The position numbers and the translations under genes are program-made. From IMG/VR virus record IMGVR_UViG_2534681936_000011: a stretch of DNA of 47,026 nt, one strand, 5' to 3'. The DNA comes from a virus (lineage: Duplodnaviria; Heunggongvirae; Uroviricota; Caudoviricetes). Below the pieces are notes generated by a model. That model was not told the DNA's origin and ran no database searches. It worked only from the letters and a program-made list of their open reading frames with translations. Below are positions 1,575-26,340 of the stretch, piece by piece. Position 1 is the stretch's first letter, and each line of letters opens with the position of its first letter.

Positions 1575-4046
1575 TTAAAAATCAGCCTGATTCGGGAGCA
1601 GTTTTTGCCAGATAGTTGAAACGTATTTTGCCTGGTAACGGGCATCATCCAGCGCATTGTGGCGCTCACCTTCGAATGGGATAGCAGTTCTGGCATCGAA
1701 GTCTACGGCTTTCCCCAGCTCAACGATTGTGCGTACATCGCGATCGTTGCAGTAGCGCCACGGGCAGGGGATACCCTGTCGTTCGTATGAACGGCGCAAA
1801 ATAGTGTTGTCGAAGTTGGCCCCATTACCCCAGACCTGAACAAAAAACTCACCGGAGTTTTCGTCGATAAATTCCCGCAATTGCAGTAGTGCATCATCTA
1901 ACGGGATTTCATCGGTCATAATGGCAGACTGCGCTTCACGTGATTGCTTCAGCCACCATTTAATGACGTCACGATCAATGACTCCGCCAGCAGTATCCAG
2001 ATCGATGGTCTTGCTAAATTCTGGTCCCATATCTCCGGTTTGCGGATCGAAAAATATTGCGCCTATTGAGATAATCGGGGCATCGGGATTTTTTCCCATG
2101 GTTTCAAGGTCGATCATCAGATGAATCCCCGCTCTGCTGGTGGATGTGAGATTATGATGACTGTTCGCCTTAATTAAGGGATCTGACGCCTCGCCAGTTT
2201 CACTATCGCTGGCATGATGCTGATTGCCGCCAGTGTTCTCCTTGTGCTGATGTGCAGTACCTTCCATTTCCTCCGGATCATTTTCCTGAACTTCAGGCTG
2301 ATTCTCTTCATCGAATATTTCCTGGTATGTTGCGTCGCCCATCACCGCGCCACAATCAGGGCAGTTGCCGCCGCCGGTCTGACCGCAGGCGGTGCAGACT
2401 TTTTCCACTTCCTGTTGCGCCACTGGTTCAGGCTGTTTCGTTTCTGGCTCGTTTTGTAACGCATTTGGGCTGTTTTGTTCCGCTTTCTGGTCGTTCTGTT
2501 CCGTTTCTTGCTGGTTCTGGTTCACAGAATCGCGGGTTTCAATCCCCTTCACCCATTTCGGATCATTCGGGTCGCTAATCCCTGCAACAAATTCACCACG
2601 TGATGCGGCGAGCAACTGATTGGCGTCAGGCTGGCTGATATTGGCTGCCTGCATAATTTTCTTTACTTCGTCAGCGGTAACTTTTACCGGTTCTGGTTGT
2701 TCAGAATTTTGTGCGGTATTTGCATTTTGCGGTAAGCCTGTGTATGTGCCATTTTTTCGGGCAAAATATTCTTCTTTTGTGATTTCAGTAGCCCCGGCAG
2801 CCAGCGCCTTATCCAGACCAGAAAGTTTGTTTGCGCGACCGTATTTTTCGCAATCCTTGTCGGTGAAGAGGAAGTAGAACGGCCCCTCACGCTCTACAGA
2901 TGGTTCGACTTCCACTTTGCATTCGGTTTTTTCGTTGTCCGGAATTGCCGTTTCCACTGCATCAGTTTCTGGTACTGGCGACGAGAGAGTGTCAGTTGCG
3001 CTCTGATTTGTTCCTTCATCTTCAAACACGCCCTTTGTAGTCAGGTATTCAGTAATGTATTTGTTCAGTGCCACAGGGTCTTTGTGAATGTCGATCGGAC
3101 GTTCACGGACAAGGCCAAAAATAGTCTGGCGGTCGTAGCGAAGGGCATCAGGCTGTTTGCGCATTGATGCCGAGATACGCTTCCAGTCTTCGCGGTCGTT
3201 GTCGATAACTTCATTTTTTGCCCAGCGATGGATGCTGCCGTCAATGTTTCCGGCATCCACATCACCAGGCCAGAGAGCGTAGGCCAGTTCGTCATCCAGT
3301 GTTTTCCATGTCTGCTTATATTCGCGACGAATGACTGCAGTGACAGGGGGGATTTTTTCTGCTGAGTTTTCAGTGTGCTGTCGGTGGACTCTGGCGCGGG
3401 CGAGATCAACAACAGACGTGTATTTTCCGGTTTCCTTGCGTTCACCTTCGCGACGTTTTTTCCAGATGCGCATTTCTGCCTGAATTTCGGGCCATTTGGC
3501 ACCAGGCTTACATTTATGCTTAACCCACCCGATGGCATGCAGCTTAAGCTCCGGATACATGGCGTTAACTTCTGGCATTTTCATCAACGCTTCAACGATA
3601 TGTCCGTCGAATGTTGCCATGTCTTCCTGCAACAATTCCTGCGCGCTAATCACCATATCAACGGTGATGTTTTCACATGTGTCGAACTTAACCATGACAG
3701 CGTTCTGTACTTCAGGGGCCAGCTTGTCAAAAGCGACGTTCATCGGATCTGATTCAGTCTCAACCGGGACAAAGGAAGCAGCCCCCTCATCCCAGCGGTT
3801 TTCCTGCATATATTCAGCATCCCAGGAATCGAGGGCAGGGCGGGGTATACCGGGTTTATCCTCGCAAACAAGAAATTTATAAGCGCAGTCCTGAGCAGCC
3901 GGATAATGCTCCAGGAATTGCCAGTGAAATTTTGCGCGGGCGCGACGTTCATCACCGGCTTCAATGGCAGTGGCTACAGCGACTGCACCTTCTTCCTTTA
4001 TTGCCTGTTCGTCCGGAATGGCGGCGCAAATAAAGACTTTACTCAT
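1575..4046 (-). CDS. Large phage exonuclease with C-terminal DnaQ-like DEDDh 3'-5' exonuclease domain
   Basis: 823 aa; C-terminal motifs MIDLETMG (Exo I) and HNALDDA (Exo III); central acidic Q/E-rich linker and a CxxC...CxxC zinc-ribbon-like motif (CTACGQTGGGNCPDCG). Sits where Qin ydfE lies; no recT/bet partner nearby. Confidence 0.7.
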   Translation of the reverse strand: MSKVFICAAIPDEQAIKEEGAVAVATAIEAGDERRARAKFHWQFLEHYPAAQDCAYKFLVCEDKPGIPRPALDSWDAEYMQENRWDEGAASFVPVETESDPMNVAFDKLAPEVQNAVMVKFDTCENITVDMVISAQELLQEDMATFDGHIVEALMKMPEVNAMYPELKLHAIGWVKHKCKPGAKWPEIQAEMRIWKKRREGERKETGKYTSVVDLARARVHRQHTENSAEKIPPVTAVIRREYKQTWKTLDDELAYALWPGDVDAGNIDGSIHRWAKNEVIDNDREDWKRISASMRKQPDALRYDRQTIFGLVRERPIDIHKDPVALNKYITEYLTTKGVFEDEGTNQSATDTLSSPVPETDAVETAIPDNEKTECKVEVEPSVEREGPFYFLFTDKDCEKYGRANKLSGLDKALAAGATEITKEEYFARKNGTYTGLPQNANTAQNSEQPEPVKVTADEVKKIMQAANISQPDANQLLAASRGEFVAGISDPNDPKWVKGIETRDSVNQNQQETEQNDQKAEQNSPNALQNEPETKQPEPVAQQEVEKVCTACGQTGGGNCPDCGAVMGDATYQEIFDEENQPEVQENDPEEMEGTAHQHKENTGGNQHHASDSETGEASDPLIKANSHHNLTSTSRAGIHLMIDLETMGKNPDAPIISIGAIFFDPQTGDMGPEFSKTIDLDTAGGVIDRDVIKWWLKQSREAQSAIMTDEIPLDDALLQLREFIDENSGEFFVQVWGNGANFDNTILRRSYERQGIPCPWRYCNDRDVRTIVELGKAVDFDARTAIPFEGERHNALDDARYQAKYVSTIWQKLLPNQADF

Positions 4047-4138
4047 TTTGTTTTACCTCATTACAGATTTAAGGGTGAACAAATCCCTGCCATTGCTGGC
4101 ATATAAGAATGAAATCGGATGTTTATTACGGAACTGTT

Positions 4139-4330
4139 TTAAAGACCTGCCGGGATTTCGTTATTATCCTGGTGAATAACTTTATCGACCGGGTAACAGT
4201 TACCGGGAATTTTCTGTTCGGTTGCTGCAGTCACACACTCCTGCATTGTCCTGTGAACACTGACTGCAATATCAACTGGCTCTCCGGAAACAAGAAAAAC
4301 TGTCAGAACAAGTGCAAATGCTGTATTCAT
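4139..4330 (-). CDS. ydfD: YdfD-like small protein with N-terminal hydrophobic segment
   Basis: 63 aa from an ATG overlapping the upstream stop (ATGA); MNTAFALVLTVFLVSGEP...; length and position match YdfD after dicB. Confidence 0.55.
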   Translation of the reverse strand: MNTAFALVLTVFLVSGEPVDIAVSVHRTMQECVTAATEQKIPGNCYPVDKVIHQDNNEIPAGL

Positions 4331-4515
4331 TGCCAGCATCCTTTTTGTATCGGACGTAAACGGGCCAGCATTGAAAGAATGCATATTTTATTTAATAACT
4401 CCCGTTCGTGTTTTCTCTTGTTAATGGCATCTTCAGTAAATACAGGGTTACTGATAGTGACACCAATTTCAAAACAACCTTCAGACGTATTAACGTTTGG
4501 TAATAACGTTTCCAT
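4327..4515 (-). CDS. dicB: Cell-division inhibitor DicB-like protein
   Basis: 62 aa: METLLPNVNTSEGCFEIGVTISNPVFTEDAINKRKHERELLNKICILSMLARLRPIQKGCWQ, near-identical to the recalled DicB sequence; immediately downstream of the DicF-like element. Confidence 0.7.
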   Translation of the reverse strand: METLLPNVNTSEGCFEIGVTISNPVFTEDAINKRKHERELLNKICILSMLARLRPIQKGCWQ

Positions 4516-4684
4516 TATCGCGTCCTCAACAATGAATTTTGTGATGCGGTGCCTGGTGCCTCCAGGTGACGTTAACCAGTTAACAATTAACGCCGGATAC
4601 AGTGAATCCCCCCATAACACTGTTTTTAGCTTTAACTGTTCCGCGTGCGCTTAGCCGCATTCACTGCATCACAAAATTCACTTT

Positions 4685-4740
4685 AAAAAGGGCGGACATC
4701 AGTTCATGGGCAAACAGATGCCGCCAAACGTCACCAGAAA
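4685..4740 (-). ncRNA. dicF: DicF-like small regulatory RNA
   Basis: Minus strand reads TTTCTGGTGACGTTTGGCGGCATCTGTTTGCCCATGAACTGATGTCCGCCCTTTTT: conserved DicF 5' seed, then a GGCGG...CCGCC hairpin and T5. Lies between the upstream ORFs and dicB as in the dicB operon. Confidence 0.7.
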
Positions 4741-5073
4741 ATTGATAACAGAGGGCGTTGCAGCGGGGTTGTCACTTAAGCGTATGGTCAACCTGACAAC
4801 CCGGTGTCCTCAACGGGGAAGGAATAACCCCGCCATACTTACCGCTGCGCCATTTCGCGGAGTGCCACAACCGGAAGCGCACGGTCGACGAAAATTTAAC
4901 GACAGGCTATCTATGAACCAGCAACCTCGCCGTGCGCTTTCGCGTTATGCTCTGACTTTTCAGAGAAATATCCTTTCAGTAAACTGTCAGTGCCGGATGT
5001 TCACCCGTGTCCGGCGCACGCACTCCACTTCACCCGTGGAGAACTCCTTAATTACCAACCCTCAGGAGGGTGA

Positions 5074-5307
5074 ATGTTAAAATCAACTCTTATTGCTAAA
5101 TGCCTTTATCAAAATCGCATGGTAAGCAGCATTTCAATAGGCGAGTCTGCAGTTAAAAGTATTTTCGAAGAGTACTTTCCCGGGCATGATTTTAATAAAT
5201 GGAATACCAAATTACCGCCAGCAGTTTCAACGCGTATTCTGAAAGCAACCGAAAGAGCAAGTACAATTCGCGTTAACTATTTCATTAAAGATTTGTGGGA
5301 TCTTTGA
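5074..5307 (+). CDS. Hypothetical 77-aa protein, opposite in orientation to the early-left operon
   Basis: ATG with strong SD (AGGAGGgtgaATG); AT-rich coding sequence; 3' end overlaps the convergent 135-aa ORF by 23 bp. Confidence 0.4.
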   Translation: MLKSTLIAKCLYQNRMVSSISIGESAVKSIFEEYFPGHDFNKWNTKLPPAVSTRILKATERASTIRVNYFIKDLWDL

Positions 5308-5692
5308 TATCCACAGAGCCTAAAGTATGTGCATATGGATGTGCTATTATGCGCCCTCGCAGATTTGCATCATTTTCTAAATTCACTGAACGAAACAGGG
5401 CATCAACAAGGCTCTGTACAATGCAAAGGCAATCGAAGACTGTCGCCGTTTCTGTTTTGATTGATGAAAGAACATGGCCATTCACGCAAACAGAAATTAC
5501 CCGTTTATTAACATCGCTTTCCTGCTTTTGATTATCAGAACCATATAGCCCAGAAAAAGCATTGCGCACATTACGAACCATATTATCGATGGTTTCTTTT
5601 TCTGCGGTACTAAGGTCAAGAGTAGCCAGTTGTGAACGAACTATATTCGATGCCATTTCCTGTAATGGCGTTGGTAAATCTTTAAATTCCAT
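5285..5692 (-). CDS. Hypothetical early-left protein (135 aa)
   Basis: ORF with GAGG SD 8 nt upstream; no recognisable family. Confidence 0.5.
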   Translation of the reverse strand: MEFKDLPTPLQEMASNIVRSQLATLDLSTAEKETIDNMVRNVRNAFSGLYGSDNQKQESDVNKRVISVCVNGHVLSSIKTETATVFDCLCIVQSLVDALFRSVNLENDANLRGRIIAHPYAHTLGSVDIKDPTNL

Positions 5693-5714
5693 TATTAGCC
5701 TCGTTGGTTAGCTA

Positions 5715-5933
5715 TTAACGTGGGTATGTAATCATTCTGGCAATGCTTAATGCCGCTGCTTTTTCCAGATTGGTGATATCCTGCTCCAGAGCGGACAGAT
5801 TTTCAGCCTGCTTAGCCCTGGCTTCATTGGCCCATTTCAGGTCCTGCACCGCCTTAATTTTCTGGTGCATCCACTCATAAAGTTCATCATCGGTATAGTC
5901 TGGCGCGATGATGACGGGGTCTCGTTTCTGCAT
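5715..5933 (-). CDS. Hypothetical early-left protein (72 aa, coiled-coil-like)
   Basis: ORF in operon context between dicA and dicF; length matches the YdfC slot. Confidence 0.45.
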   Translation of the reverse strand: MQKRDPVIIAPDYTDDELYEWMHQKIKAVQDLKWANEARAKQAENLSALEQDITNLEKAAALSIARMITYPR

Positions 5934-6005
5934 GTCGGCTCCTTGTGGTTAGCGTTGCCTGCTTTTTAACCACATCAGGCGAGGTGGTATCCTCTGAGGG
6001 GTCTG

Positions 6006-6362
6006 TTACTCGAGAGGAAATTGGTTATGAATACAATCAAGTTTTCTTGCCCAGAATGTGGTGGCTAAGTCTTTGACACATCCTTTAAGCCGCAGGGCTC
6101 TGACAGTTTCGCGGGAGCCATCTGCAAAAATTGTGGTCACCTTGTAACTGAAGATGAGTCCTCGCAGTTCGATGACGAAATCGTTGACAATATCTTCGGT
6201 GCACTCACCAGAGACTTTCTGAAGTAAAGGCGCATACCGCTTAGTTACCGCTCTGATAACTCTTACCTGTCCGGCAATGGCGCTGATATCAATATAAAGC
6301 GCCATCGCTGTTTCTTTGCTGATCCCTGGACGCCTTCCATTCTGATGTTTGACTTCGCCCAC
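6006..6362 (-). CDS. Hypothetical early-left protein (up to 118 aa; start uncertain)
   Basis: First ORF downstream of the repressor on the same strand. Confidence 0.4.
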   Translation of the reverse strand: MGEVKHQNGRRPGISKETAMALYIDISAIAGQVRVIRAVTKRYAPLLQKVSGECTEDIVNDFVIELRGLIFSYKVTTIFADGSRETVRALRLKGCVKDLATTFWARKLDCIHNQFPLE

Positions 6363-6569
6363 TGAGAAATCCTCTGCTTCCCCTTAACGCCGGGTAGCGG
6401 AACTGTTTGCTGAGAACACCGTGCGGTGTCTTGATGAGTAGAATTTAGAATAGCCTAAGAGTTATGGTCAAGCTTTTTGTGTAGAAAAACCTAAGCTTCT
6501 TGATGTAAAAAACACAAGTATTTGAAAGTTTGTGCTTTTTATTACAGAGAGTTGCGAAAAAAAGGGGGG

Positions 6570-6977
6570 TTATTTATTTGCGCTTCTTTTGCGAGCTTTG
6601 AGTAGTTCTTCAAAAAGTTTGTTGAAATTCTCAACTCGAGCACGCATCTCTGACAACAGAGCCTTTTGCTCTGACTCAGGCAGTGCGTCGAACAGTTGAA
6701 GCAACTCTTTTTGATCTTCTGTCAGATTGACTGGCTGATTATCTGGGATCGGTTCGCCTGGTTGCTTATCTTCATCTCCAAAAAGAAGCCAAGTCGGCGA
6801 GCACTGAAGCGCCTGGCTCAGTGCGAATAATCTCTTCCCCGCTGGCTGTGTTTCATCTCTTTCCCATTGAGAAATTGTTACGTGAGCCACTTTGACCAGC
6901 TTACCTAATGCGGCCTGAGACAGTTTTAATTTTTTTCGCCTGTATAAGAGGCGAGCACCGAAGGTTTCGTTTTTCAT
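6570..6977 (-). CDS. dicA: DicA-like HTH (XRE-family) prophage repressor
   Basis: 135 aa; MKNETFGARLLYRRKKLKLSQAALGKLVKVAHVTISQWERDE... HTH; length and C-terminus (FNKLFEELLKARKR) match recalled DicA; divergent from a cro-like gene. Confidence 0.85.
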   Translation of the reverse strand: MKNETFGARLLYRRKKLKLSQAALGKLVKVAHVTISQWERDETQPAGKRLFALSQALQCSPTWLLFGDEDKQPGEPIPDNQPVNLTEDQKELLQLFDALPESEQKALLSEMRARVENFNKLFEELLKARKRSANK

Positions 6978-7053
6978 ATTAGGTAATTCTAATTTTTCTT
7001 GACTTAGGTTTCTCTACGATCTAGTTTCCTTAGGAAAATCTAAGGGGTTCGAT
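6978..7053. promoter_or_regulatory. Divergent promoter/operator region between dicA and dicC
   Basis: 76-bp intergenic region with palindromic operator candidates: TTAGGTAATTCTAA (6979-6992) and CCTTAGGAAAATCTAAGG (7028-7045), plus a related element between them. Confidence 0.5.
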
Positions 7054-7281
7054 ATGTTGAAAATTGATGCTATAGCGTTTTTTGGCAGCAAAACAAAGCT
7101 TGCCAATGTCGCAGGAGTTAGGCTGGCAAGCGTTGCTGCATGGGGGGAACTGGTTCCTGAAGGTCGCGCGATGCGCCTGCAAGAGGCATCCGGCGGGGAA
7201 CTTCAGTACGACCCCAAAGTTTATGACGAATATCGTAAGGCAAAGCGGGCGGGGCGGTTGAACAATGAAAATCACCACTGA
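7054..7281 (+). CDS. dicC: DicC-like (Cro-like) regulator
   Basis: 75 aa; MLKIDAIAFFGSKTKLANVAGVRLASVAAWGELVPEGRAM...; divergent from dicA. Confidence 0.75.
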   Translation: MLKIDAIAFFGSKTKLANVAGVRLASVAAWGELVPEGRAMRLQEASGGELQYDPKVYDEYRKAKRAGRLNNENHH

Positions 7282-7816
7282 ACAGGTTTGTGAGGCTCTG
7301 GATACCTGGGTATGCCGACCAGGAATGACACAGGAGCAGGCGACGATATTAATCACGGAAGCATTCTGGGCTCTGAAAGAACGCCCGAACATCGATGTTC
7401 AACGCGTCACGTTTAATGATGGCGAGGTTGATCAACGGGCGCTGGGCGTTAACCGGGTGAAGATATTCGAACGCTGGAAAGCTATCGACACCAGAGATAA
7501 GCGTGACAAATTCACGGCGCTGATTCCGGCAATTATGGAGGCTATCCGGATCAGCGATTTCAGATTGTATTGTGAAATTACTGACGGAAAAAGCATTACG
7601 TACATGATCGCCGGGTTAAACAAAGAATATGGCGATGTGGTGGAGTCCGGGCTGCTTTTTGCGGATCCAGTTGTTGTGGAACGTGAGACTGACGAGCTTA
7701 TAGAAAAAGCTATTGCTTTCAAGCACGCGTATCGTCAGCAATACCAATATTACTTTGCAGATAAACAAATGTCTGCCAGGGGTTCGTATGAGTATCGATG
7801 CACTACGATGGGCTAA
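7265..7816 (+). CDS. Hypothetical early-right protein (183 aa), family uncertain
   Basis: ORF overlapping the dicC stop; second gene of the early-right operon. Confidence 0.5.
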   Translation: MKITTEQVCEALDTWVCRPGMTQEQATILITEAFWALKERPNIDVQRVTFNDGEVDQRALGVNRVKIFERWKAIDTRDKRDKFTALIPAIMEAIRISDFRLYCEITDGKSITYMIAGLNKEYGDVVESGLLFADPVVVERETDELIEKAIAFKHAYRQQYQYYFADKQMSARGSYEYRCTTMG

Positions 7817-22415: not shown

Positions 22416-24073
22416 TACCTGTATGGAGCACGGCATGTCCGGACTGGGCAGAGCGCCTGAAAAAGGGACTGTCGATTATTCCGGCTCCGATTTATCCGGA
22501 CCAGGCTGCACATGCACTGGCGATTTTTAAACAACTGCGGATTGTGGATGCACCGGGTAGCCCGACGTTCGGGGAGTCCTGCGCACAGTGGGTGTTTGAC
22601 CTGGTGGCGGCCCTGTTTGGCTCCTATGATGCGCAGACCGGTGTACGCCATATCAAGGAAGTTTTTATCCTTATCCCCAAGAAAAACAGTAAGTCCACGC
22701 TGGCCGCGGGGATCATGATGACGGCGCTGTTACTGAACTGGCGGCAGGCGGCGGGCTACACCATTCTGGCCCCGACCGTGGAGGTGGCGGCTAACGCCTT
22801 CAACCCTGCCAGGGATATGGTACGACGGGACGATGATCTGGATGACCTCTGTCAGGTGCAGACACATATCCGGACCATCACCCATCGGGTGACGGACACC
22901 ACCCTGAAGGTGGTGGCAGCCGATCCGAATACGGTGTCCGGTATCAAGTCCGTGGGGACACTGATTGATGAACTGTGGCTGTTTGGCAAGCAGTACAAAG
23001 CGGAAGACATGCTACGTGAAGCCATCGGCGGGCTTGCCTCCCGTCCGGAAGGATTTGTGGTGTACACAACCACCCAGTCGAATGAACCGCCTGCCGGGGT
23101 GTTCAGACAGAAACTGCAGTACGCCCGGGATGTCCGTGACGGCAAAATTCATGATCCGCACTTTCTGCCGGTGATTTTTGAGCATCCTCCTGAAATGGTG
23201 GAAAGCGGGGCTCACCTGCTGATGGAAAACCTCGCCATGGTTAACCCGAATCTCGGTTATTCGGTGGATGAGGCTTTTCTGTACCGGGAGTACCGTAAAG
23301 CCCGGGAGGCTGGTGAGGAAGCATTTCGTGGCTTCATGTCAAAACACGCCAATGTGGAAATCGGTCTTGCCCTGCGTTCTGACCGCTGGGCGGGCGCGGA
23401 TTTCTGGGAGCAGCAGGGCAGGCGCGTCAGCCTGGACGATATCCTGCAGCGCGCTGATGTGGTGACGGTGGGGATTGACGGCGGGGGCCTGGATGATCTG
23501 CTGGGAATGTACGTGATTGGCCGTGACAGGGAAACCCGCGAATGGCTGGGCTGGGGCCATGCCTGGGTGCATGAAACCGCGGTGGTCAGACGGAAGAGTG
23601 AGGCATCCCGGTTTCAGGATTTTGTGGCCTGTGGAGACATGACGATTGTCCGTCGGGTCGGGGATGACACGGCGGAAGTGGCGGAGTATGTGCGTCGTAT
23701 TCATGAGGCTGAGTTACTGGATCATATCGGTATTGACCCGTCAGGTGTGGGGCAGATTCTGGATTCACTGGCGGAAGCCGGGATCCCCGATGAGAGTGTG
23801 GTGGGGATAAGCCAGGGCTGGAAGCTGGGCGGGGCCATCAAAACCACCGAGCGCAAACTGGCTGAGGGAGTGCTGGTGCATGGTGGTCAGCCACTGATGG
23901 CCTGGTGCGTTGGCAATGCCCGGGTGGAGCCTAAAGGTAACGCCATTCTTATCACCAAACAGGCCAGCGGACGGGGAAAAATTGACCCGCTGATGGCGCT
24001 CTTCAATGCGGTGTCCCTGATGTCCCTGAATCCGGAACCGAAAAAGAAAGCGTATGAGGTTTTTTTCATATAA
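22412..24073 (+). CDS. Terminase large subunit
   Basis: 553 aa; position and size; ATPase then nuclease architecture. Confidence 0.85.
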   Translation: MIPVWSTACPDWAERLKKGLSIIPAPIYPDQAAHALAIFKQLRIVDAPGSPTFGESCAQWVFDLVAALFGSYDAQTGVRHIKEVFILIPKKNSKSTLAAGIMMTALLLNWRQAAGYTILAPTVEVAANAFNPARDMVRRDDDLDDLCQVQTHIRTITHRVTDTTLKVVAADPNTVSGIKSVGTLIDELWLFGKQYKAEDMLREAIGGLASRPEGFVVYTTTQSNEPPAGVFRQKLQYARDVRDGKIHDPHFLPVIFEHPPEMVESGAHLLMENLAMVNPNLGYSVDEAFLYREYRKAREAGEEAFRGFMSKHANVEIGLALRSDRWAGADFWEQQGRRVSLDDILQRADVVTVGIDGGGLDDLLGMYVIGRDRETREWLGWGHAWVHETAVVRRKSEASRFQDFVACGDMTIVRRVGDDTAEVAEYVRRIHEAELLDHIGIDPSGVGQILDSLAEAGIPDESVVGISQGWKLGGAIKTTERKLAEGVLVHGGQPLMAWCVGNARVEPKGNAILITKQASGRGKIDPLMALFNAVSLMSLNPEPKKKAYEVFFI

Positions 24074-24136
24074 CCCTGCTCACCCTGTAACCATCATGAA
24101 CCGCTGCGGCGGTTTTTTTATTTTCAGGAGGCTGAT

Positions 24137-26074
24137 GTGACTCTTAAACGGGCCTGTTCCCTGCTGACGGTGAAATCCTTCAGTGAGGATGAACGGGTGA
24201 TCACCGGGATTGCGTCAACGCCTTCTCCGGATCGGGATGGTGACATCCTGGAGCCGGAGGGGGCGGAGTTTGGCAGTACGATCCCGTTTCTCTGGCAGCA
24301 TGACCATTCCCGCCCTGTAGGCCAGTGTACGGTGCGTCGGGTCAGGGAAGGGCTGGAAATCACGGCAATGCTGGTGAAGCCGGAGCCGGGGATGCCCTCC
24401 CAGATGGCAGCCCGGCTGGATGAGGCCTGGGCTGCCATTAAGACCGGGCTGGTCAGGGGGCTTTCTGTGGGCTTCCGGCCCCATGAATACACTTATCTGG
24501 ACGGAGGCGGACTGCATTTTCTGCGCTGGGAACTGATGGAGGTGTCTGCCGTCACCGTGCCCGCGAATGCGGAATGCACCATCCGGACCATTAAATCTTT
24601 CGGCAGCCCGTTTTCTGCCGCGTCCGGCAACCGGAGACCGGTGGTGAAAATCGCATCTTCTGCCGGCGCTTCGGCACAGTCAATAACCTCTTTTCATAAG
24701 GAAAAGTCAGCAATGAATACTGGTGAACAGATTAAAAGTTTTGAAAACAAGCGTGCGGCGCTGGCAGCCTCCCTTGAGGAGATCATGAACAAAGCCGCAG
24801 AGGAAGGCCGCACACTGGATGTGGAAGAGGAAGAGCACTACGACAACACCGCAGCGGAAATCCGTCAGGTGGATGCGCACCTGAAGCGTCTGCGTGAACT
24901 GGAAACCAGTAAGGCCGCCACGGCACAGCCGGTGAAACAGGCCGGTAACGGGAATGTGGCCACGGTGGCTTCAGCGCCGGTGATCTGTGTTGAGCAGAAA
25001 CTGGAGAAGGGGATTGGTTTCGCCCGCTTTGCCAAATCACTGGCCGCGGCTAAAGGTGTCCGCTCTGAAGCCCTGGAAGTGGCCCGTCGTCAGTATCCGG
25101 ATGACAGTCGTCTGCATCATGTCCTGAAATCGGCGGTGGGGGCAGGGACCACCACGGACCCACAGTGGGCAGGCAGCCTGTCTGAATATCAGGAATATGC
25201 GCAGGACTTTATTGATTACCTGCGTCCGCAGACCATTATCGGGCGATTTGGTCAGGGCGGGATCCCTGCACTTCGTCTGGTGCCGTTCAATATCCGCGTG
25301 CATGCCCAGGTGTCCGGCGGTGCTGCCGGCTGGGTGGGGGAGGGTAAGGCCAGACCCCTGACGAAGTTTGATTTTGAGTCCATCACCTTCAGTCATGCGA
25401 AGGTGTCGGCCATTGCGGTACTGACGGAAGAGCTGATCCGCTTTTCCAGTCCGGCAGCTGATGCACTGGTCCGTAATGCGCTGGCAGAAGCGGTGGTGGC
25501 GCGTCTGGACACAGACTTTGTGGACCCGAAAAAAGCTGCAGTGGCAGATGTCTCCCCGGCGTCCATCACCCATGATGTGAAGGGCACGGCATCAACCGGT
25601 AACCCGGATGCGGATGCCGAGGCCGCGTTTGGCCAGTTTGTGACGGCAAATCTGCAGCCCACTGGTGCTGTCTGGCTGATGTCCAGCACGAATGCCCTGG
25701 CGCTGTCCATGCGTAAAAATGCGCTGGGTCAGAAGGAATATCCGGACATGACCCTGCTGGGCGGGACCTTTCAGGGGCTTCCGGTGATTGTCTCCCAGTA
25801 TGTGGGTGACCAGCTGGTACTGGTGAATGCACCGGATATTTATCTGGCGGATGACGGCGGTGTGGCAGTGGATATGTCCCGTGAAGCGTCACTGGAAATG
25901 CAGTCTGAGCCGGGCGGCGACAGCACCACACCGTCGCCGGTGGAGCTGGTTTCCATGTTCCAGACCGGCAGCGTGGCCATCCGTGCGGAGCGCTGGATCA
26001 ACTGGCGTCGTCGCCGTACTGCGGCGGTGGCTGTGATCACCGGTGTGAACTACGGCAGTGCGTCCGGCGGCTGA
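24137..26074 (+). CDS. Fused prohead protease, scaffold-like linker and HK97-fold major capsid protein
   Basis: 645 aa; N-terminal HK97-type protease signatures (ITGIAS...DRDGDI...FLWQHD...GLSVGF...EVSAVTVPAN), central coiled-coil segment, C-terminal capsid-like region; AGGAGG SD. Confidence 0.75.
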   Translation: MTLKRACSLLTVKSFSEDERVITGIASTPSPDRDGDILEPEGAEFGSTIPFLWQHDHSRPVGQCTVRRVREGLEITAMLVKPEPGMPSQMAARLDEAWAAIKTGLVRGLSVGFRPHEYTYLDGGGLHFLRWELMEVSAVTVPANAECTIRTIKSFGSPFSAASGNRRPVVKIASSAGASAQSITSFHKEKSAMNTGEQIKSFENKRAALAASLEEIMNKAAEEGRTLDVEEEEHYDNTAAEIRQVDAHLKRLRELETSKAATAQPVKQAGNGNVATVASAPVICVEQKLEKGIGFARFAKSLAAAKGVRSEALEVARRQYPDDSRLHHVLKSAVGAGTTTDPQWAGSLSEYQEYAQDFIDYLRPQTIIGRFGQGGIPALRLVPFNIRVHAQVSGGAAGWVGEGKARPLTKFDFESITFSHAKVSAIAVLTEELIRFSSPAADALVRNALAEAVVARLDTDFVDPKKAAVADVSPASITHDVKGTASTGNPDADAEAAFGQFVTANLQPTGAVWLMSSTNALALSMRKNALGQKEYPDMTLLGGTFQGLPVIVSQYVGDQLVLVNAPDIYLADDGGVAVDMSREASLEMQSEPGGDSTTPSPVELVSMFQTGSVAIRAERWINWRRRRTAAVAVITGVNYGSASGG

Positions 26075-26118
26075 GTCTGATGAGGAGGGCGGGAGGTGAG
26101 AGCGTCCCGCAGTAACTG

Positions 26119-26340
26119 ATGGCAAAAATCCGATATCTGCAGGGTACACATGATGCCCGGCCCGGGGATATCCGGGATGTCGCACAGCCGTGTGCGGAGG
26201 TGCTGGTTCGCCTGGGAAAGGCGGAGTACATCACAGCGCGACGTCCGGCGGGTCAGAAAAAGAAACATGATGCGGAGCATAGCGAATGTGGAACCTTTTG
26301 CGACGAACCCGAAAAAACCAGAAATCAGGACGTGATGTAA
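26119..26340 (+). CDS. Small hypothetical ORF between capsid and portal genes
   Basis: 73-aa ORF overlapping the portal start; weak RBS. Confidence 0.25.
   Translation: MAKIRYLQGTHDARPGDIRDVAQPCAEVLVRLGKAEYITARRPAGQKKKHDAEHSECGTFCDEPEKTRNQDVM

Follow-up and report, generated by a model that had tools for sequence, protein, structure and literature searches.

Sequence comparison points to a folded RNA in the DicF spacer and a swappable two-gene cassette in the early-left region of an Escherichia coli prophage

DicF and DicB affect cell division, metabolism and phage resistance, as well as virulence in EHEC, and the amount of the small RNA relative to read-through into dicB depends on the events at the DicF terminator. 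The interval at positions 4741-5307 of the window (here the whole stretch of 47,026 nt of viral DNA that was analysed) lies next to this terminator and raises the question of which strand, and which genes, its parts belong to. The first-pass annotation treated it as one unit, an inserted moron composed of a plus-strand 77-aa ORF, antisense to the early-left operon, and of about 330 nt of hairpin-rich structured leader or co-transcribed RNA upstream of it, not present in the Qin dicB operon.

The stretch 4600-5400 of the window is 100% identical to E. coli O55:H7 prophages and about 99.8% identical to the same stretch in O157:H7 and O121 genomes. The minus strand is a typical early-left operon, in which the HTH repressor gene (6570-6977) is followed by a 118-aa ORF, ydfC (5715-5933), the gene of a 135-aa protein (5285-5692; WP_000394552.1, phrog_1363), a gap without a minus-strand gene, DicF and, in this order, dicB, the DUF1482 gene and the RecE-like exonuclease gene. 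The plus-strand 77-aa gene (5074-5307; WP_000920491.1, phrog_10348) has an ATG start and was found as it had been described, with an AGGAGG Shine–Dalgarno sequence at 5064-5069 and the 4-nt spacer GTGA before the start codon, and its 3' end overlaps that of the 135-aa ORF by 23 bp (5285-5307). Likewise, the gap holds no sizeable minus-strand ORF, as none longer than 36 aa occurs within 4741-5284. PGAP labels both the 77-aa and the 135-aa ORFs as hypothetical proteins.

The comparison with K-12 divides the interval into two parts. Judged by its homology, the stretch 4741-5060 was not inserted but is the conserved untranslated ydfC-dicF spacer of the Qin-type prophages; its identity to the corresponding spacer in K-12 Qin is about 96%, and the statement that this stretch is missing from the Qin dicB operon was mistaken. 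In MG1655, the distance from ydfC to dicF is 340 nt. A megablast search with 4741-5307 matched 4,083 of 5,426 complete E. coli genomes, and the typical match covered query positions 1-320 at 96-97% identity, was unannotated and was present in K-12 laboratory strains too. The whole query including the ORF was found in only 649 of the 5,426 genomes, and the presence or absence in relatives, the comparison that had been proposed as a check, thus differs between the spacer and the gene.

The boundaries of the second part were given by blastn. Window positions 5060-4100 correspond to positions 2563-3525 of the K-12 locus (94.7% over 964 nt), a match that covers the spacer, dicF, dicB and ydfD with the strand and order unchanged, while window positions 5933-5695, i.e., ydfC plus 20 nt, correspond to positions 2324-2562. 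As the two matching K-12 segments abut, the indel relative to K-12 Qin is exactly 5061-5694, a convergent two-gene cassette of 634 bp that comprises the 135-aa gene together with the 77-aa gene and leaves the ~330 nt outside. The idea of an inserted moron with a leader is thus supported in part, for the 77-aa ORF as a plus-strand gene that is absent from K-12 Qin and not for the supposed leader, which is not part of the inserted DNA. The presence/absence polymorphism among collinear prophages that is expected of a moron was found for the 77-aa gene.

The literature identifies the long untranslated region carrying dicF with the ydfC-dicF interval (Faubladier 1990, cited in PMC5069750; PMC9438474), and DicF is described as a derivative of the ydfC 3' UTR (PMC5069750; PMC9438474). 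The K-12 dicBF transcript runs leftward, RNase E makes the 5' end of DicF and its own terminator makes the 3' end (PMC5069750; PMC9438474). That the spacer instead encodes a protein, either by a plus-strand ORF of 124 aa (4706-5080) or by a degraded minus-strand gene, is very improbable. In this window, the frame is indeed open for 124 codons across the whole spacer, but copies that are 83-93% identical have 1-5 stops and several indels in it, K-12 lacks the ATG of the ORF, neither Pfam nor PHROG gave a match to the 124-aa ORF, and the longest minus-strand ORFs do not exceed the 36 aa given above. The 124-aa ORF was rejected as non-coding based on these stops and indels.

The 77-aa ORF, on the other hand, is a real protein-coding gene, as the first-pass annotation had assumed for an ORF antisense to the operon. 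The pairwise dN/dS values outside the overlap are between 0.04 and 0.34, with synonymous sites near saturation. There are 33 homologues with 55-72% identity, nearly all of exactly 77 aa, in Klebsiella, Serratia, Dickeya, Xenorhabdus, Salmonella, Morganella and Yersinia, and an exhaustive profile search gave 163 clusters at 50% identity, almost all of them stand-alone proteins of 74-79 aa. AlphaFold (AF2) predicted a five-helix bundle with a pLDDT of 96.9 and a pTM of 0.86. The possibility that the ORF is non-coding, a false call on the antisense strand, agrees with its annotation as only a hypothetical protein without family or function; the dN/dS values, the retained length, the 163 clusters and the confident model all argue against it and leave it with practically no weight.

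The profile searches that had been suggested for the 77-aa protein thus returned many relatives and no known family. No analogue was detected in Pfam, NCBIfam, PADLOC, the PDB or BFVD, a sequence-profile search of the PDB was negative too, and at E <= 0.1 Pfam gave no match, SieB (PF14163) included. The fold is, according to the model, confidently predicted and without a known relative, and a literature search for WP_000920491 found nothing.

The surroundings of the 77-aa homologues are conserved as well. In every locus examined from other genera and sources (eight), the homologue converges on a minus-strand gene of 77-191 aa, which directly follows the CI-like repressor gene in most loci and comes second after it in Xenorhabdus. 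The products of the partner genes in other genera align with residues ~63-135 of the 135-aa protein of the window, and the 3' ends overlap by 23 bp in Serratia, Dickeya, Klebsiella, Salmonella and Xenorhabdus and by 26 bp in Yersinia. In the Salmonella enterica locus (AANRUL010000053.1), a SieB-family gene (PF14163; 2195-2677, plus strand) lies directly upstream of the 77-aa homologue on the same strand, so that two plus-strand genes are embedded in the Salmonella early-left region.

The 135-aa protein consists of a conserved N-terminal module (residues ~1-55) and a C-terminal domain (residues ~63-135), and its AF2 model was poor (pLDDT 45). The N-terminal module M[EQ]FKDLP...GLY, in the window MEFKDLP...GLY, is common to E. 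coli prophage proteins of 121-208 aa whose C-termini are unrelated. The contig search with DicB as a query yielded only 7 loci. Seven C-terminal types were examined in DicB-type E. coli prophages, and all seven have their own convergent small gene: the 135-aa type is paired with the 77-aa gene, the 201-aa type with a 63-aa gene, the 133-aa type with genes of 27 and 64 aa, the 208-aa type with a 69-aa gene, the 126-aa and 187-aa types with a 73-aa gene each and the 121-aa type with a 66-aa gene. The 3' ends overlap by 0-68 nt in the seven types, and BLASTP comparison of the small proteins showed them to be mutually unrelated. This pairing pattern indicates that the exchanged unit is the C-terminal domain together with the convergent small gene, between conserved flanks, and by this comparison the region 5061-5694 is a polymorphic, swappable two-gene cassette.

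The searches of Pfam, NCBIfam and PADLOC with the 77-aa and 135-aa proteins, six other partner variants and five other small proteins gave no match, and no toxin, immunity or defence family was recognised among the cassette proteins scanned. A homology search with the C-terminal domain of the partner returned only near-identical fragments. In the locus of the 133-aa type, an extra ORF of 27 codons (MDKKQIEALQSIIEKQDEAIRILFISH; ~2057-2140) is located between the conserved Shine–Dalgarno sequence and the 64-aa gene, so this cassette may hold two small plus-strand genes. Moreover, the phages phiSTEC1589-Stx1c (locus ~1410-1600) and PhiR5_2 (~1710-1900) contain an unannotated plus-strand ORF starting with MTQEEKVMFLMRLAVDTYN, which is related to the 63-aa small gene and in both phages sits after the conserved upstream segment described below.

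It is possible, though not probable, that the 77-aa gene acts as a moron on its own, such as a SieB-like exclusion or anti-defence factor, functionally unconnected with the convergent gene, and that the co-variation of the pair results from recombination breakpoints only. The slot and the orientation are those of sieB in Rac, the Salmonella relative has its SieB-family gene directly upstream, and both K-12, whose Qin is without the cassette, and strain E30, which is without the small gene, manage without it. However, each of the seven C-terminal types has a small gene of its own, no match to SieB or to another family was obtained, and across genera, at 55-70% protein identity, the partner domain stays the same and so does the overlap of 23 bp. 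A shared breakpoint explains too little here, as the retention of both the overlap and the partner across genera goes beyond what it predicts.

The claim of a plus-strand leader could be retained for the last ~95 nt before the gene (4979-5073), which travel with plus-strand genes, and not for the whole of 4741-5060, which is found in K-12 without such a gene. A counterpart of the segment 4979-5073 precedes five of the seven unrelated small genes or gene sets (those of 77, 63, 73, 73 and 27+64 aa). Its features are the hairpins GCCGGA/TCCGGC and CTCCAC/GTGGAG, a duplicated TTCACCCGTG and the AGGAGG Shine–Dalgarno sequence, and it may be the promoter or the 5' UTR of these genes, including the 77-aa gene. 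The small gene of phage mEp460 has the upstream motif of the other genera instead of this segment.

In the other genera, the 77-aa homologue is preceded by 130-260 nt of unrelated DNA with its own -10 motif, and a promoter-like TT(C/A)ACC...GTGGTATCTT (extended -10) about 35 nt before the ATG is common to these loci. The E. coli copy lacks the extended -10 motif GTGGTATCTT, and no sigma-70-like promoter was detected on the plus strand of 4741-5073. Downstream of the gene, a consensus scan identified a terminator-like hairpin with a T run on the plus strand at 5738-5755, inside the antisense ydfC, which could possibly be the 3' end of a plus-strand transcript; terminator-like sites in the region were no more frequent than in shuffled sequences.

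The sequence TCACCC at 5001-5006 and again at 5030-5035, each copy in or beside a hairpin loop, is complementary to GGGTGA at 5068-5073, between the Shine–Dalgarno sequence and the ATG of the 77-aa gene. A pairing of this kind would be a possible translational control of the gene. The target GGGTGA is replaced by GAGTGA in phiSTEC1589 and PhiR5_2, without a compensating change.

The three hairpins named in the first-pass annotation were all located by sequence within 4741-5073: GGGTTGTCA/TGACAACCC at 4766-4774 and 4794-4802, CTCTGA/TCAGAG at 4950-4955 and 4960-4965, and GCCGGA/TCCGGC at 4992-4997 and 5010-5015. Two further ones can be added, a 13-nt stem (4872-4884/4930-4942) and CTCCAC/GTGGAG (5023-5028/5036-5041). 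The folding scan of the 333 nt, which had been recommended, gave better folds than dinucleotide shuffles on both strands (z of -3.0 for plus and -3.5 for minus), and none of 100 shuffles was as good. The part of the ydfC-dicF spacer at 4874-5060 contains the long hairpin (4872-4884/4930-4942) and three short ones, and its consensus folds are equally good in the two senses (-48.8 vs -47.8).

At 4690-4739, the minus strand has DicF, including the terminator hairpin of this small RNA; the stretch is homologous to K-12 dicF and matches Rfam RF00039 over the full length, though slightly below the gathering score of 48 (43.5 bits, E 2e-7). At permissive E-values, the Rfam 15 scan of 3500-7500 and 4680-5080 gave, besides DicF, only a sub-threshold STnc100 match, with other matches at E ~4. 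The STnc100-like match (4496-4701, minus strand) is full-length, with 32.1 bits, a gathering score of 47 and E 2e-4, and spans the DicF-dicB intergenic region. The covariance-model scan of the spacer, another of the proposed checks, thus added no Rfam family to DicF; it did give a match to a model built in this work.

This model describes a predicted four-helix RNA of 128 nt on the minus strand, just 5' of DicF (4746-4873), here called element X. In the minus sense, it comprises an outer stem P0 (GUUGUGGC/GCUGCAAC), a hairpin P1, a stem P2 enclosing a hairpin PA, the loop of which nearly always holds the motif YUCCUY, and a hairpin PB with a 19-nt loop; a pseudoknot joins GUAUGG with CCAUAC, the latter being located in the PB loop. 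Seventy-four distinct variants were collected, and 34 diverse ones were aligned (alignment A2). In A2, 94.1% of the cells are paired, and shifting the partners by 1-3 columns lowers this to 31-55%. Covariation was seen at 9 pairs, with 29 cells altered on both sides, whereas shuffles gave 6.0 +/- 2.0 such cells and none of 500 reached 29. There are 67 G.U and 24 A.C cells, and the paired fraction is consequently 93.1% in the minus and 88.8% in the plus sense. The wobble pairs prefer the minus strand, which carries DicF, by a modest but consistent margin. The covariance model built from A2 (R1) has one match in the window, 4746-4873 on the minus strand, with 147.6 bits, and element X matched none of the Rfam 15 families.

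Sensitive blastn showed that the stretch ~4749-4871 is conserved well beyond the Qin-type prophages, with homologues of X in phages P1, P7, cdtI and 2H10 and in Salmonella phage F1055. In cdtI, 2H10 and F1055, the element follows the repressor gene without a DicF seed, and in cdtI it lies ~280 nt downstream of a pL-like promoter. In P1 and P7, it is directly downstream of the C1-controlled Pban promoter, and the P1 record names its neighbourhood "dicF-like region". An intrinsic terminator, seen as a stable hairpin with a U run, is present 3' of X in 88 of 88 distinct variants, 52-99 nt past the PB-loop pattern; it is DicF in the Qin types and elsewhere a DicF-like terminator with the seed different or missing. 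As the IMG/VR copies were retrieved by a pattern located in the PB loop, the invariance of this loop among them is partly an ascertainment effect; the copies found by blastn (P1, P7, cdtI, F1055) have the same PB loop.

The 9-mer GTCCTCAAC (minus sense GUUGAGGAC) occurs at 4806-4814, in the junction strand of X, and again at 4522-4530, at the ribosome-binding site of dicB; for a 9-mer, a chance recurrence is possible. The UCCU motif of the PA loop is complementary to it in most X variants. The deposited annotations of cdtI, F1055 and 2H10 place plus-strand "hypothetical proteins" across X (1124-1579, 1265-1837 and 885-1079, respectively), and these ORF calls are probably spurious. Moreover, the minus strand of the cdtI locus contains an arginine-rich ORF of 29 codons (MCKSMMMLIRRLTSVAIRFDAWEETRVQR; 1700-1790) between the pL-like promoter and X.

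We propose tentatively, and with a rather low probability, that X represents an undescribed class of phage cis-acting RNAs, which occurs in lambdoid prophages and in P1/P7, in repressor-controlled early transcripts immediately before an intrinsic terminator, and acts either as a protein-independent antiterminator or attenuator unlike the put RNAs of HK022 or as a scaffold for small RNA processing. As an antiterminator or attenuator, X would set whether the polymerase stops, with the release of a DicF-type small RNA, or reads on into dicB/kil-type genes. As a processing scaffold, it would serve a family of small RNAs with interchangeable seeds.

These results also bear on whether the ~330 nt could be, as first suggested, the structured leader or a co-transcribed RNA of the 77-aa gene, transcribed on the plus strand from a promoter at or to the left of 4741; such a transcript would run antisense to DicF and X as well. 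The lack of a promoter-like site near the gene would fit a distant promoter, the plus strand folds well (z of -3.0), the proximal 95 nt do accompany plus-strand genes, and the GGGTGA at the ribosome-binding site is a possible pairing partner of the TCACCC repeats. However, K-12 and thousands of other genomes have 4741-5060 without a plus-strand gene, P1, cdtI and F1055 have X but not the 77-aa gene, the wobble pairs of X prefer the minus sense, and the upstream DNA in the other genera is unrelated, 130-260 nt long and has its own -10 motif. We therefore consider this leader unlikely. The overall interpretation of the first-pass annotation is thus supported with regard to a real plus-strand cargo gene and not supported with regard to a long structured leader absent from Qin.

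The explanation that we prefer, and consider probable, is that the interval combines two unrelated things on opposite strands, the untranslated DicF spacer with X on the minus strand and the swappable two-gene cassette. The spacer 4741-5060 with X would be transcribed leftward together with DicF as the DicF precursor, with RNase E forming the 5' end of DicF and the DicF terminator its 3' end, as in K-12. Element X would act in cis on its transcript, influencing read-through or processing at the DicF-type terminator; alternatively, it may be a second functional RNA with an anti-Shine–Dalgarno-like motif in a loop. The 77-aa gene would be expressed from 4979-5073 during prophage repression and silenced on induction by convergent leftward transcription, and its product may act on the oppositely encoded C-terminal domain as a cognate antidote or modulator. 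The negative promoter search on the plus strand of 4741-5073, the missing GTGGTATCTT motif and the equal folding of the two strands of 4874-5060 speak against this explanation, as do the poor model of the 135-aa partner, the negative search for toxin, immunity or defence families, the modest margin of the strand preference of X and the ascertainment effect on its PB loop.

As X is located before the DicF terminator and is common to P1 and other phages, it is an obvious candidate regulator of the balance between the small RNA and dicB. Between ydfC and the spacer, the pattern of exchanged gene pairs suggests cognate protein partners in prophages that are very common in E. coli, O157:H7 prophages among them. 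In the literature searched, no description was found of either the X RNA or the rule by which the cassette genes are paired. The 77-aa gene had already been annotated as a hypothetical protein.

Among known systems, the cassette can be compared with sieB, the exclusion gene of Rac, lambda and P22, which is a plus-strand gene in the early-left operon. The layout in Rac is a DUF1391 gene, the convergent plus-strand sieB, KilS and kilR; sieB is thus convergent with the gene that follows the DUF1391 gene, and its place is upstream of a small RNA resembling DicF and of a division inhibitor. The 77-aa gene, which K-12 Qin lacks, as had been noted, occupies in the same orientation the slot held by sieB in Rac. 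It differs in that SieB has 162 aa, whereas the 77-aa protein appears to be soluble and has no sequence or family relation to it, and a role in exclusion would be assigned by analogy only.

The cassette likewise resembles polymorphic toxin-immunity or toxin-antitoxin modules in its conserved N-terminal module, variable C-termini and one small gene set per type. Unlike in those modules, the small gene is convergent and not downstream on the same strand, and no known toxin or immunity domain was found in the cassette proteins.

The put RNAs of HK022 are cis-acting antiterminators in early phage transcripts, with two stem-loops and ~70 nt (PMC9378689). Element X is similarly predicted to fold and lies in an early transcript under repressor control, ahead of terminators, but it has four helices and a pseudoknot in ~128 nt, and antitermination by X would be an analogy with put. 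The comparison of X and the spacer with HK022 positions 24000-32000 gave no match longer than 13 nt (E >= 0.5).

KilS of Rac (K-12, NC_000913.3, 1418405-1418502) has an equivalent position, before kilR, and shares in its 3' half the DicF terminator hairpin and the downstream sequence (GGCGGCATCAG...CTGATGTCCGCCCTTTTTAAAGTGAATTTTGTGATGCGGTGAATGCGGCTAAGCGCACG). Its 5' part is unlike DicF, Rac is without the X element, and KilS has been reported to have its own promoter (PMC8175672). From this similarity, KilS appears to be a paralogue of DicF in which the seed has been exchanged.

Finally, the spacer of Qin dicBF, i.e., the DicF precursor, is the direct homologue of 4741-5060, with strand and order kept. 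The folded domain X inside the Qin spacer is not described in PMC5069750 or PMC9438474, and, of the two loci, it is only in this window that a 634-bp two-gene cassette parts the spacer from ydfC.
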